From the IMG/VR virus record IMGVR_UViG_3300032328_000071, positions 1-36,484 of that record: a stretch of 36,484 bases of DNA; one strand, 5' to 3'. Below the pieces are notes generated by a model. It did no database searches, was not told where the DNA came from, and saw only the letters and a program-made list of their open reading frames with translations. Origin of the DNA: a virus. Positions 8,186 through 11,445 of the stretch are shown here, one piece after another. Both the position numbers and the translations under genes were made by a program. The stretch's first letter is position 1; each line of letters opens with the position of its first letter.

Positions 8186-8200
8186 GGTATATACCTATGG
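8183..8200 (+). promoter_or_regulatory. 18-mer TAGGGTATATACCTATGG, copy 1 (contains the 10-bp palindrome GGTATATACC)
   Basis: 17/18 identical to 10395..10412. It begins on a stop codon and ends with an ATG(G). Confidence 0.45.
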
Positions 8201-8409
8201 CATACAGTAGAAAAAACATCTCTAATGCAGGAGACAGAGTTGTTTTAGAGAAGGCCGAAGCAAGGGAGATATACCGAACTTGGCAATCAAACAGAGATAA
8301 CGATTTTGTTCGTGCCAGGCTTGAGCGTTGCGAAAAGGTCTATGGATCAGGAGCAAGAGATCGAGTCAGGACCTATATGTCAAGAATGAAAGAAGGACAA
8401 ATTGAATGA
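8197..8409 (+). CDS. Hypothetical protein (70 aa, basic)
   Basis: ATG lies inside the 18-mer. The stop TGA 8407-8409 overlaps ATG 8406. Confidence 0.7.
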   Translation: MAYSRKNISNAGDRVVLEKAEAREIYRTWQSNRDNDFVRARLERCEKVYGSGARDRVRTYMSRMKEGQIE

Positions 8410-9133
8410 GCTGGCTTTATTCGCAGGCGCTGGTGGAGGAATACTTGGGGGAAAACTTCTCGGATGGAGAACAGTCTGTGCCGTCGAGTGGGAAAAATAC
8501 CCAGCAAGCGTATTGTGCGCCCGACAAAATGACGGACTTCTCCCCCCTTTCCCAGTTTGGGATGACGTTCAAACCTTTGACGGAAGACCATGGAAAGGAA
8601 TTGTTGACGTTATATCTGGAGGCTTTCCGTGCCAAGACATCAGTTCAGCCGGAAAAGGAGCAGGAATTGATGGAGAACGATCAGGAATGTGGGGAGAAAT
8701 GGCACGGATCATTGGGGAAATACGACCAAGATACGTCTTTGTGGAAAACTCACCAATGCTCACTTCTAGGGGACTTGGACGAGTTCTCGGAGACCTGGCC
8801 GCGTTGGGGTTTGATGCGAAATGGGGAGTTTTGGGAGGTCAAGAGTTTGGCGCATCACATTCAAGGGACAGAATTTGGATTGTCGCATCCGACCCCATTA
8901 AAAACGGATCACTTCAAATTTCTCAGATTTCGCAAGGAGTCAGTATTGAAAAGCACGTTTGGGATGCACAGGAATTCAATCGCTTATTGGATGACTGTCA
9001 ACCATGGGAAGATACCAAGCGTGGAATGGATATATTGGGTGATGGGGTGGCCGAGTGGGTGGGCCAGTCTGAATGCCTTGGAAACGGCCAAATACCAATC
9101 GTGGCTGCAACGGCATGGAGAATCCTAAAATGA
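8402..9133 (+). CDS. DNA (cytosine-5)-methyltransferase, compact phage type (243 aa, TTG start)
   Basis: Motif I FAGAGGG (8420-8440). Motif IV GGFPCQDIS (8618-8644). Motif VI ENSP (8744-8755). Motif VIII SRDRIWIVA (8861-8887). Motif X LGNGQIPIVA (9077-9106). The stop overlaps the rusA ATG. Confidence 0.9.
   Translation: MNELALFAGAGGGILGGKLLGWRTVCAVEWEKYPASVLCARQNDGLLPPFPVWDDVQTFDGRPWKGIVDVISGGFPCQDISSAGKGAGIDGERSGMWGEMARIIGEIRPRYVFVENSPMLTSRGLGRVLGDLAALGFDAKWGVLGGQEFGASHSRDRIWIVASDPIKNGSLQISQISQGVSIEKHVWDAQEFNRLLDDCQPWEDTKRGMDILGDGVAEWVGQSECLGNGQIPIVAATAWRILK
8406..9128 (+). CDS. Alternative-frame ORF co-extensive with the methyltransferase gene (possible overprinted gene; coding status unproven)
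   Basis: 240 stop-free codons in the +1 frame. ATG start in ATGA overlap with the upstream gene. AAGGA (8393-8397) lies 8 nt upstream. See findings. Confidence 0.4.
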   Translation: MSWLYSQALVEEYLGENFSDGEQSVPSSGKNTQQAYCAPDKMTDFSPLSQFGMTFKPLTEDHGKELLTLYLEAFRAKTSVQPEKEQELMENDQECGEKWHGSLGKYDQDTSLWKTHQCSLLGDLDEFSETWPRWGLMRNGEFWEVKSLAHHIQGTEFGLSHPTPLKTDHFKFLRFRKESVLKSTFGMHRNSIAYWMTVNHGKIPSVEWIYWVMGWPSGWASLNALETAKYQSWLQRHGES

Positions 9134-9558
9134 CATTCATGGTAACTTTTAAAGTAGACGCTAACCCTGTTGGCAAACAAAGGGCTAGATACGTCAAGAG
9201 GGGAAACTTTGTGCAAACTTACACCCCTGAGAAAACTAGAACCTATGAAACCTTAATCAAGGATGCTGCAATTGAGGCAATGGGTAGCTCAGAACCACTA
9301 GAAACCCCTGTGAGCCTTTATTTGTATATAAGAGTACCAATCCCTAAGTCATGCACTAAAAAGCGTCTAGAAGCCATTTCTAATGGGTCAGAGAAGCCAA
9401 CAAAGAAGCCTGACGCAAGTAATATCCTAAAAAGCGTAGAAGATGGCATGAACGGGGTTGTCTACCATGACGACTCGCAGATCATAAACATCCACGTGAC
9501 CAAGGTTTATTCGAGTCTGCCAGGCGTTGATATTTGCGTTAAGGAGTGCTTGGAATGA
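9130..9558 (+). CDS. rusA: RusA-like Holliday junction resolvase
   Basis: From ATG 9130 (ATGA with the MTase stop). Typical RusA pattern ...PVGKQRARY...TYTPEKT..YE..I........P......V.L......P.P....KK........KPD..N..K...D..NGVVY.DD.QI. Confidence 0.82.
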   Translation: MTFMVTFKVDANPVGKQRARYVKRGNFVQTYTPEKTRTYETLIKDAAIEAMGSSEPLETPVSLYLYIRVPIPKSCTKKRLEAISNGSEKPTKKPDASNILKSVEDGMNGVVYHDDSQIINIHVTKVYSSLPGVDICVKECLE

Positions 9559-10397
9559 GAAACCCGTTTGAGATTACCGAACCTACTTGCATCAGCTTCT
9601 CGGGAGGCAGAACATCGGCATTTATGCTGTACAAGGTTTTAGAGGCTCACCAGATGAGCCTACCGCCCGAAGCAATCGTATGCTTTGCGAATACAGGCAA
9701 GGAGTGTGAGGAGACTTTGGAGTTTGTCCATGATTGCGAGACAAATTGGGGTGTCAAGATAAATTGGCTTGAGTACAAAGCCCATGAAACCCCAAAAGAT
9801 AGGTTTAGAGTAGTCAATTTTGAGACGGCAAGTCGAGATGGAGAGCCTTTCTTTGACTCAATTAACCAAAACGGCAAGCCATACCTACCTAATCCAGTTG
9901 CCAGGATCTGCACAATCAACATGAAGATTCGAGTCATTCACCATTATTTGAAGTCTTTGGGGTGGAAGCACAACGAAAACATGCATTGGGTGGGCATTCG
10001 GGCTGACGAACAACGAAGGGCAGCCAAGATTGACAGAAGCAGAACCCCACTTGTGGCGGCAGGAATTACCAAAGAACACGTTGGAGCGTTTTGGAAAAGC
10101 CATGCATTTGACCTTAAGTTGCCAAACAACAATGGGGTAACGATGCATGGAAATTGTGACTTGTGTTTTTTGAAGCCAGCTCACCAGATTCAGTCCCTAA
10201 TCCAAGAAAAACCCGAGAGGGCTTTGTGGTGGATGAAGATGGAAGCCCATGCCAATAGTTCTAACAAAACCTATGGAGACGGGGCAAAGTTCCGAAAAGA
10301 CCGCCCAAGTTATGCAGAAATGCACAAATATGCTTTAGCTCAGACAGATATGTTTGATAAAGATGAAGAGGGAATTGCTTGTTTTTGCGGAGACTAG
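9555..10397 (+). CDS. PAPS-reductase / ATP-pyrophosphatase (PP-loop) family protein with C-terminal Cys cluster
   Basis: PP-loop SFSGGRTS near the N-terminus. Cysteines at NCDLCF and ACFCGD. ATG 9555 follows AAGGAG (9541-9546) and overlaps the rusA stop. Confidence 0.8.
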   Translation: MRNPFEITEPTCISFSGGRTSAFMLYKVLEAHQMSLPPEAIVCFANTGKECEETLEFVHDCETNWGVKINWLEYKAHETPKDRFRVVNFETASRDGEPFFDSINQNGKPYLPNPVARICTINMKIRVIHHYLKSLGWKHNENMHWVGIRADEQRRAAKIDRSRTPLVAAGITKEHVGAFWKSHAFDLKLPNNNGVTMHGNCDLCFLKPAHQIQSLIQEKPERALWWMKMEAHANSSNKTYGDGAKFRKDRPSYAEMHKYALAQTDMFDKDEEGIACFCGD

Positions 10398-10697: not shown

Positions 10698-10936
10698 CCA
10701 TAGAAGGCATTATCCGCATGGCAAAACAGGCAGGGTTTGCTGATGAAGAAATTGATACTTGTCAACAGATATTGATTCACTTTGCCAAACTAGTAGCAGA
10801 GCATGAACGTGAGGCGTGTGTAAGTATTGTTGATGAAGCAATAGATTTTTGGGTAAAAGGAGGCTATCCAGAAGGCGCAGAAGTCAGAGAGGCTATGAAT
10901 ATTGCAGAAGCTATTCAAGCAAGGGGGCAAGCATGA
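10694..10936 (+). CDS. Hypothetical protein (80 aa)
   Basis: ATGA overlaps at both ends. The ...FAKLVAEHEREACV...AIQARGQ pattern recurs in phage small proteins (from memory). Confidence 0.7.
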   Translation: MTIEGIIRMAKQAGFADEEIDTCQQILIHFAKLVAEHEREACVSIVDEAIDFWVKGGYPEGAEVREAMNIAEAIQARGQA

Positions 10937-11445
10937 AAAAAGAACTTCTCATTGGTTGCGGATCTAACCACACAAAGAAGATGGCAGTAGATGGAACGCC
11001 AACCTTTGATAACCTAACCACTCTGGACTACAACGCTGACCACAATCCAGACGTTTACTGGGACTTGATGAGTCTCCCACTGCCGTTTAAAGACAATGAG
11101 TTTGATGAAATCCATGCTTATCAGGTGCTAGAACACCTTGGGCAGCAGGGTGACTACAAACTATTCTTTGCCCAATTCTCAGAGTTCTGGCGACTTCTCA
11201 AGCCAAATGGTCATTTCCTTGCGACTTGCCCATCAAGAAGTTCAGTCTGGGCTTATGGTGATCCAAGCCATACAAGAATCATGCAGCTCGAACAACTGGT
11301 GTTTCTATCCCAAGATGAGTACAAGAGGCAGGTTGGCAGAACGCCCATGTCCGACTTCAGGAATATTTACAAAGCAGACTTTAAAACTGTCTTTCAAGAA
11401 GAGGACGATGACATCAGGTTTGTACTAAAAGCTATTAAGAATTGA
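10933..11445 (+). CDS. Class I SAM-dependent methyltransferase (170 aa; substrate unknown)
   Basis: From ATG 10933 (ATGA with the upstream stop). LLIGCGS...FDEIHAYQVLEHL...LKPNGHF is typical of the Methyltransf_11-like fold. Confidence 0.75.
   Translation: MKKELLIGCGSNHTKKMAVDGTPTFDNLTTLDYNADHNPDVYWDLMSLPLPFKDNEFDEIHAYQVLEHLGQQGDYKLFFAQFSEFWRLLKPNGHFLATCPSRSSVWAYGDPSHTRIMQLEQLVFLSQDEYKRQVGRTPMSDFRNIYKADFKTVFQEEDDDIRFVLKAIKN

Follow-up and report, generated by a model that had tools for sequence, protein, structure and literature searches.

The C5 cytosine DNA methyltransferases of solved structure are organized in two domains. The large domain contains the motifs I-VIII and X, whereas the small domain contains the target-recognition domain and the motif IX (PMC3404938). 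M.AquI (Karreman and de Waard 1990), as far as the passage devoted to it in PMC3404938 goes, is a naturally split C5-methylase with the break in the variable region, and the large and small domains can therefore be separate chains. M.EcoHK31I (Lee, Kam and Shaw 1995, Nucleic Acids Res 23:103) is described, in the parts of PMC2836561 and PMC3404938 that deal with it, as a two-polypeptide C5-methylase in which both chains are needed for activity. Its alpha chain carries the motifs I-VIII plus X; its beta chain carries the motif IX, is coded within the alpha gene in a different frame and can dispense with its N-terminal 42 residues. The locus described here belongs to the virus record IMGVR_UViG_3300032328_000071 of IMG/VR, whose 36,484 nucleotides (nt) are the window, that is, the whole stretch of DNA that was analysed. 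At this locus two open reading frames (ORF) run in parallel on the same strand: frame A, which carries cytosine-5 methylase motifs, and frame B, displaced by +1 and nested in frame A, which starts 4 nt after the start of frame A and ends 5 nt before its stop. Selection acts on frame A, then on frame B and then again on frame A, and the locus quite probably encodes a two-chain cytosine-5 DNA methyltransferase (alpha from frame A, beta from frame B) from these two co-extensive frames.

M.EcoHK31I appears to be the only described precedent and, by comparison with it, the locus is best read as a system of the same kind in a new co-extensive form. As in the published descriptions of that enzyme, the alpha frame contains the motifs I-VIII plus X, and a second conserved and selected ORF lies in the other frame inside the alpha gene. 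On the other hand, the beta of M.EcoHK31I is a short internal ORF (117 aa), whereas the beta ORF is here co-extensive with alpha; the literature places the recognition domain of M.EcoHK31I in alpha, whereas the selection pattern would place it here in beta; and, unlike M.EcoHK31I, the present arrangement is found in a very large phage and prophage family. In M.AquI the two ORF are consecutive, the alpha containing the motifs I-VIII and the beta the motifs IX and X, whereas here the motif X is on the alpha frame and the ORF overlap throughout. In common with the monomeric M.HhaI and M.HaeIII (PF00145), frame A has the motifs I, IV, VI, VIII and X and the fold of the large domain, but it lacks a selected recognition domain and motif IX, and the corresponding segment is selected in the +1 frame.

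Selection was counted region by region, in the style of OLGenie, on 132 distinct genes, with the ratio dNN/dSN for frame A and dNN/dNS for frame B (N, nonsynonymous; S, synonymous; frame A is given first and frame B second). Over the codons 1-162, which contain the motifs I-VIII, the ratio is 0.15 for frame A and 0.65 for frame B. In the hypervariable middle, frame A stands at 0.89 (0.61-1.3) and frame B at 0.10 (0.08-0.13), and the 17 codons of 'LNPxWVEWLMGWPxGW' yield 0.92 for frame A and 0.42 for frame B. From GNGQ to the end the values are 0.24 and 0.49, respectively. When selection on frame A alone is simulated, the +1 frame gives 0.70 and the +2 frame 1.15, which equal the observed 0.65 and the observed control, 1.21. 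Since 0.65 equals this A-only null, only the avoidance of stops stands for the N-terminus of frame B, and amino-acid selection on its first ~160 residues, suggested by a first pass (dNN/dNS 0.65-0.69), was dropped.

The codon-phase entropy gives the same borders. The frame-A pattern holds through codon 162, where RIWIVA ends and a sharp switch occurs; the frame-B pattern is seen from ~22 codons ahead of the GN codon to the codon just before it, and the G of GN marks a sharp return to frame A. In the nine sequences of the clade to which the window belongs, the B translation of 8889-9080 is near-invariant and the A translation varies freely, the variants per site being 0.88 for NS, 0.12 for NN and 0.25 for SN. 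Frame A is in this segment an unconstrained linker that is kept stop-free. The constraint alternates A, B, A at the borders of the large and small domains, and each frame is a stop-free passenger where the other frame is selected.

This pattern differs from that of the viral overprinted genes, in which a second frame arises on top of one already under constraint and the same nucleotides are constrained in both (PMC8227390). The locus resembles these genes in its long same-strand overlap and in having two predicted products from one DNA stretch. On the other hand, no constraint of both frames on the same nucleotides was found over the gene, as the constraint alternates by region, and the product of the second frame resembles the domain that the enzyme of the first lacks. 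The preliminary description of this DNA had proposed a possible overprinted gene, which in the usual sense is not borne out: the frames take turns rather than share constrained nucleotides. It had also regarded the strings that recur in frame-B proteins as mere +1 readings of methylase motifs. This is correct for MSWLYS.., ..AKTS and SWKT.Q (motifs I, IV and VI) and incorrect for (W)PTP and EW.MGWP.GW, where frame B is selected and the 'GRVADGVA..' of frame A is the by-product.

Judged from its sequence, frame A carries the large domain of a C5 cytosine DNA methyltransferase. The C5-methylase motifs I (FxGxG), IV (PCQ), VI (ENV), VIII (RxR) and X (GNxxxP) are all read in this frame, the last one as GNGQIP, and most of them are invariant in a 94-sequence alignment. 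Frame A matches PF00145 over the residues 4-168 (108 bits, E-value 7e-31) and phrog_363 (E-value 3e-57), and scores 84 bits with TIGR00675, which is under the cut-off of 100.65 of that family. The profile of frame A aligns to the residues 13-176 of M.HhaI (E-value 4e-18) and to the residues 1-165 of M.HaeIII, and the alignment ends after the motif VIII. The AlphaFold2 (AF2) model of frame A is of moderate confidence (predicted local distance difference test, pLDDT, 56.9; predicted template modelling score, pTM, 0.55) and has a large domain of alternating strands and helices, a middle with pLDDT <50 and a predicted terminal helix at the residues 231-242. Foldseek searches with this model retrieve M.HhaI and M.HaeIII (2i9k, 1dct) at an E-value of 1e-9 over ~175 columns. 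Neither a target-recognition domain nor a motif IX was found between the motifs VIII and X of the A chain, where the dNN/dSN is 0.89, the pLDDT is <50 and the profile alignments have already ended; the stretch reads as low-complexity.

The openness of the two frames was compared with chance by fixing the frame-A protein and its codon usage and permuting the synonymous codons. In the window, 5.6 stops are expected in frame B by permutation and none of the permutations is stop-free (0/200). In the first viral set (74 distinct genes), 5.3 stops are expected in frame B and none is observed; the chance of a stop-free frame B is ~0.001 per gene under permutation. With frame B fixed instead, frame A would be expected to contain 9.3 stops but has none. 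In the window 13 third-frame stops are counted (11.9 expected), and in the first viral set 16.4 (13.7 expected). Because the third-frame stops match or exceed the expectation, this strand is not short of stops in general, and the caveat raised earlier, that the region is generally depleted of stop codons, fails for the sense strand.

The same holds for the parts of the gene. If frame B is fixed, the middle of frame A should contain ~2.6 stops, and a given locus would lack them with a probability of 0.087; none occurs in 132 loci, which span dozens of unrelated middle (recognition-domain) sequences; the third frame of this region has 5.3 stops for 4.9 expected. In the N-terminal part of frame B ~3.0 stops are expected and 129/132 loci have none. 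In this part, the changes that are synonymous in frame A and create a stop in frame B are 7-fold rarer than those that are missense in frame B (ratio 0.14; control frame 0.98). The openness of the two frames is thereby confirmed as real and far beyond chance, and the comparison with shuffled controls that had been suggested earlier gives a +1 frame open far beyond its synonymous permutations.

It is hardly credible that frame B is an untranslated shadow ORF, open through the codon and amino-acid make-up of the methylase and miscalled by gene finders. Its N-terminal motifs result from reading methylase motifs in +1, the ratio in that part is the one given by selection on frame A alone, and AF2 does not fold the protein. 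Nevertheless, a frame in which more than five stops are expected is open in 74/74 genes, the nonsense-creating changes are depleted, the ATG is invariant and, in the middle, B-synonymous changes are ten times commoner than B-nonsynonymous ones at positions where frame A is unconstrained. The preliminary description had left the choice between a conserved dual-coding gene and a chance shadow ORF; the openness in hundreds of diverged loci, the invariant ATG and the purifying selection on the C-terminal part of frame B support conserved dual coding.

The start signals point to frame B as well. Its ATG is invariant in 119/119 distinct start contexts, which requires that the Asn codon 2 of frame A is AAT in all of them (119/119); elsewhere in frame A, AAC is counted 886 times versus 647 for AAT. 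The first codon of frame A, on the other hand, is ATG in 67 contexts, TTG in 14 and GTG in 9, and in the remaining 29 contexts frame A begins at an ATG 9 nt upstream, with its GGAG placed 7 nt before the ATG of frame B. Across the 119 contexts, a Shine-Dalgarno-like motif lies 2-6 nt from codon 1 of frame A, which corresponds to 6-10 nt from the ATG of frame B, and by this spacing it suits frame B better than frame A. The frame-A starts located 9 nt upstream therefore point to a dedicated ribosome-binding site for frame B inside frame A. The start region ATGGAGCAATTAAATG, present in L003, L014, L017, L018, L021, L052 and other loci, is an example in which the first codons of frame A hold the GGAG for frame B.

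In frame B, no match to Pfam or NCBIfam was found; it matches phrog_1008, phrog_26627 and phrog_35493. The pattern LNPxWVEWLMGWPxGW near its end directly precedes the motif X and resembles the LxPRECARxMG[FY]P..[FY] of methylases. Such a segment is present in 115/150 B-type representatives, ~30 residues from the C-end, and in 0/120 A-type proteins. By pattern and position it is a putative motif IX. Proof of a small domain or a motif IX in frame B by sequence profiles was also attempted, and was dropped after searches of the PDB and Pfam brought no gain. A separate observation concerns the locus L140 (899-2480), in which frame B extends over >526 codons with at least five 'WPTP' modules and frame A ends without the GN motif X; it may represent a different layout or a multi-specific recognition array.

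Two polypeptides are the simplest model for the locus because they explain the A-B-A switches, the open passengers and the own start of frame B. A single Shine-Dalgarno site would serve both starts, with ribosomes initiating at TTG 8402 for frame A or at ATG 8406 for frame B. The alpha chain would consist of the catalytic large domain (motifs I-VIII), a linker of ~64 residues whose amino acids are indifferent, and the motif X, which would pack back onto the large domain. The beta chain would begin with a leader of ~160 residues, probably disordered and equally indifferent in its amino acids, followed by the recognition domain and the motif-IX-like helix, which together would form the small domain. 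Alpha and beta would then associate into an active, sequence-specific orphan methylase, which would shield the phage DNA from host restriction. We infer that both frames are translated, that the chains associate and that beta is needed in methylation.

Natural chains in which the A motifs I-VIII are fused in frame to the B recognition domain and motif-IX-like segment (P0241, P0242) speak for this model; the B module therefore sits directly after the motif VIII, as in ordinary methylases. A search with an artificial chimera for single-frame relatives returned only A-to-B fusions that end in frame B; in those inspected, the frame changes at a homopolymer run or at one of several dispersed sites. 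Four B-type representatives have the motifs IX and X in one chain, and the one inspected at the DNA level is P0373, encoded on the contig L249. Between the IX and X segments of this contig (~900-1300) there is a third-frame ORF with HNH motifs (HH.DGN...N...C..CH...H), and the junction sequence is duplicated. This ORF looks like a mobile endonuclease inserted in the methylase gene, and the motifs IX and X of P0373 would share one frame because of the insertion, as a side effect.

The selected segments, taken in order, give the canonical succession of motifs I-VIII, recognition domain, IX and X, as a single methylase chain would if it were produced through two programmed ribosomal or transcriptional frameshifts, from A to B after the motif VIII and from B to A before the motif X. 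In some relatives a poly-C tract of 10-14 lies precisely where A first gives way to B, and among contigs with different tract lengths A is fused to B. Such a double shift is nonetheless quite improbable. There is no conserved slippery sequence at either junction, where the nucleotides are variable, and the window has neither a slippery heptamer nor a homopolymer run. A single chain would not need the 5' ATG of frame B, an open frame B upstream or an open middle of frame A, yet stops are selected against in these parts. Furthermore, the A-B fusions that occur naturally terminate in frame B and have no motif X.

Homopolymer runs are found inside the gene in 15/139 distinct relatives. The loci with a poly-G run at codon ~83 are L003, L013, L024, L040, L063, L075, L083-L085, L091 and L147, and those with a poly-C run at codon ~165-172, the A-to-B junction, are L026, L039, L102 and L165. 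The frame fusions track the length of the run: L091 has G10 and its kin G11, and L165/P0242 has C12 versus C14 in L102. These differences may be phase variation or sequencing error. It is very improbable that the open frames as such serve phase variation, with slippage at homopolymers switching the expressed combination of frames. The poly-G of 10-11 after the motif IV in 12 relatives, the poly-C of 10-14 after the motif VIII in 3, and the fusions of L091 (G10) and L165 (C12) relative to their kin would fit such a switch; the window and most relatives, however, lack a run >=7, differences in run length among metagenomes may be sequencing errors, and the fusions lose the motif X.

The arrangement is conserved over a wide range of relatives. 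All the 79 full-length viral loci, which were selected on frame A (56-97% frame-A identity), have both frames open end to end, and their third frame is broken every 10-60 codons. With 80 metagenome loci added, also selected on frame A, ~155/159 have both frames open, with one exception, L091, being an A-to-B hybrid. Among 80 loci from bacterial genomes, selected on frame B, ~68 have both frames open, and a single nonsense is found in frame A at five and in frame B at one. With frame-A identities that reach down to 56%, the loci are not near-clonal. The genome loci come from Pseudomonas, Acinetobacter, Citrobacter, Pantoea, Bradyrhizobium, Nitrosomonas and others, as well as from Treponema, Planctomycetota, Flavobacteriales and Verrucomicrobiota. 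In 61 cultured-phage records frame B can be aligned over 85-100% of its length; these include Salmonella Lederbergvirus, Pseudomonas Detrevirus and Klebsiella Uetakevirus, together with phages of Acinetobacter, Vibrio, Ralstonia, Microcystis and Mycobacterium. In the Mycobacterium phage Nitzel frame B opens 76 nt after the start of frame A. As a side observation, with a 6-kb query the nucleotide similarity to cultured phages (68-86%) is confined to the 5' ~435 nt of the gene (window 8403-8837), and the hosts of these phages range widely (Pseudomonas, Vibrio, Salmonella, Microcystis).

Several results weigh against the two-chain methylase. The profile of frame B found no methylase in the PDB. 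A chimeric A+B+A profile did not gain in score against the PDB (68 vs 69 bits), and neither did chimeric A+B+A sequences against PF00145 and Pfam. The AF2 prediction of frame B from 98 sequences has a pLDDT of 40.8 and no confident fold; the residues 1-177 stay at <50 and only the residues 178-220 reach 50-60. Frame B has one stop, with the remainder intact, in L097, L109 and L152/L154, where frame A is intact, and frame A is interrupted in L174, L186, L191 and L211, where frame B is intact. Because such single-frame nonsense loci occur, neither frame is indispensable in every genome, although some of the loci with one interrupted frame may be decaying prophages. Finally, the model gives no account of why beta has a leader of 160 residues instead of an internal start.

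Part of this evidence would suit an independent frame-B protein, for instance a regulator that binds DNA or a factor against defence systems, with frame A alone as a complete methylase of short or flexible recognition region. The strong selection on the C-terminal part of frame B, its own conserved start, the absence of any significant resemblance to a methylase domain, in sequence or by profile, and the genomes with frame B intact and frame A nonsense-mutated are what such a protein would show. This explanation is unlikely, on the other hand, as frame A has no amino-acid constraint between the motifs VIII and X and, given its low complexity and pLDDT <50 there, would have no recognition domain. 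The selected part of frame B fills exactly the gap between VIII and X and ends, like the motif IX, with L-x-P-x5-[LV]-M-G-[WFY]-P-x-x-[WFY]. The chains found in nature that join A I-VIII in frame to the B module and the precedent of EcoHK31I also point to a two-chain methylase instead.

The way in which the records are annotated follows from the overlap. Gene finders permit one of two co-extensive ORF, and consequently records hold a methylase or a 'hypothetical protein', never both; the inspected phage records annotate either frame A or frame B. Frame B is called 'hypothetical protein', and the methylase frame is left unannotated, in NC_054959 gp35 (RefSeq; L246 401-1084) and in PP083311 CDS0044 (GenBank; L163 601-1329). 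In other records the reverse occurs, with the methylase frame called and frame B not. Clustering of the frame-B proteins gives 5,139 groups at 90% identity, and at 50% identity there are 8,527 representative clusters; at least 8,000 protein relatives of frame A were counted. The preliminary description was right in stating that proteins of this frame commonly carry the label 'hypothetical proteins'.

It is on balance likely that the cytosine methylases of this very large phage and prophage family are obligate two-chain enzymes with starts 4 nt apart, the 'MSWLYS...WPTP...EWLMGWPxGWT' hypothetical proteins being their specificity subunits. A literature search found no description of such a family-wide arrangement. 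If true, a function would be assigned to a family that comprises at least 8,500 representative clusters, and few same-strand dual-coding arrangements known from prokaryotic viruses would be as long or as widespread. For overlapping genes, it represents a same-strand overlap of 240 codons kept across bacterial phyla, in which the frames alternate in information and both must stay open. As a conjecture, a detachable recognition subunit with 0-5 'PTP' modules could be a route to swap or multiply the specificities of phage methylases. Natural split methylases already serve as scaffolds for targeted methylation (PMC2836561), and the family, if it is as proposed, would supply many more of these scaffolds.

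Table 1. Features of the two-frame locus and its borders (positions in the window).
Feature	Position	Strand	Remarks
Frame A ORF (alpha)	TTG 8402 to TGA 9131-9133 (8402..9133)	+	243 aa
Frame B ORF (beta)	ATG 8406 to TAA 9126-9128 (8406..9128)	+	240 aa, +1 relative to A
Segment selected in A	8402..8887, codons 1-162	+	Motifs I-VIII; B is here a passenger leader without stops
Motif I, FAGAGGG	8420-8440	+	Frame A reading
Motif IV, GGFPCQDIS	8618-8644	+	Frame A reading
Motif VI, VENSP	8741-8755	+	Frame A reading
Motif VIII, SRDRIWIVA	8861-8887	+	Frame A reading
Segment selected in B, putative target-recognition domain	8889..9080, B residues 162-225	+	Begins at PTP of 'SHPTPLKTD'
Frame B 'IPSVEWIYWVMGWPSGW', motif-IX-like	9012..9062	+	Family consensus LNPxWVEWLMGWPxGWT
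Frame A 'GNGQIPIVAATAWRILK', motif X and C-terminal helix	9080..9130	+	A is again the selected frame
Upstream 70-aa ORF	8197-8409	+	TGA 8407-8409 overlaps the ATG of B as ATGA
Shine-Dalgarno-like AAGGA	8393-8397	+	Common to both starts; 4 nt from TTG, 8 nt from ATG
B TAA 9126-9128, rusA ATG 9130-9132, A TGA 9131-9133	9126..9133	+	All three within 8 nt

The coordinates of both frames, the ATGA junction and the spacing of the AAGGA given in the preliminary description all hold on re-reading the sequence, and its motif pairs (frame A / frame B) are read as listed there. Its five antisense ORF of 64-73 aa over the locus are likewise present in the ORF listing. The earliest internal Met of frame A is the residue 96. 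The overlap between the frames (723 nt) is the sole long same-strand overlap of the 36-kb window and, as had been stated, is unmatched elsewhere in it. The runner-up measures 291 nt and may be due to chance: a 96-aa alternative-frame ORF (11138-11428) placed inside another ORF (10849-11445).

The gene downstream of the locus is RusA-like (phrog_140, E-value 2e-42). It is followed, with a 13 nt overlap at the rusA end, by a phosphoadenosine-phosphosulfate-reductase-like gene at 9546-10397 (phrog_424, E-value 3e-49). A further ORF, of a family without assignment, is found at 10933-11445, and together with the gene at 9546-10397 it may form a DNA-modification cluster beside the methylase.

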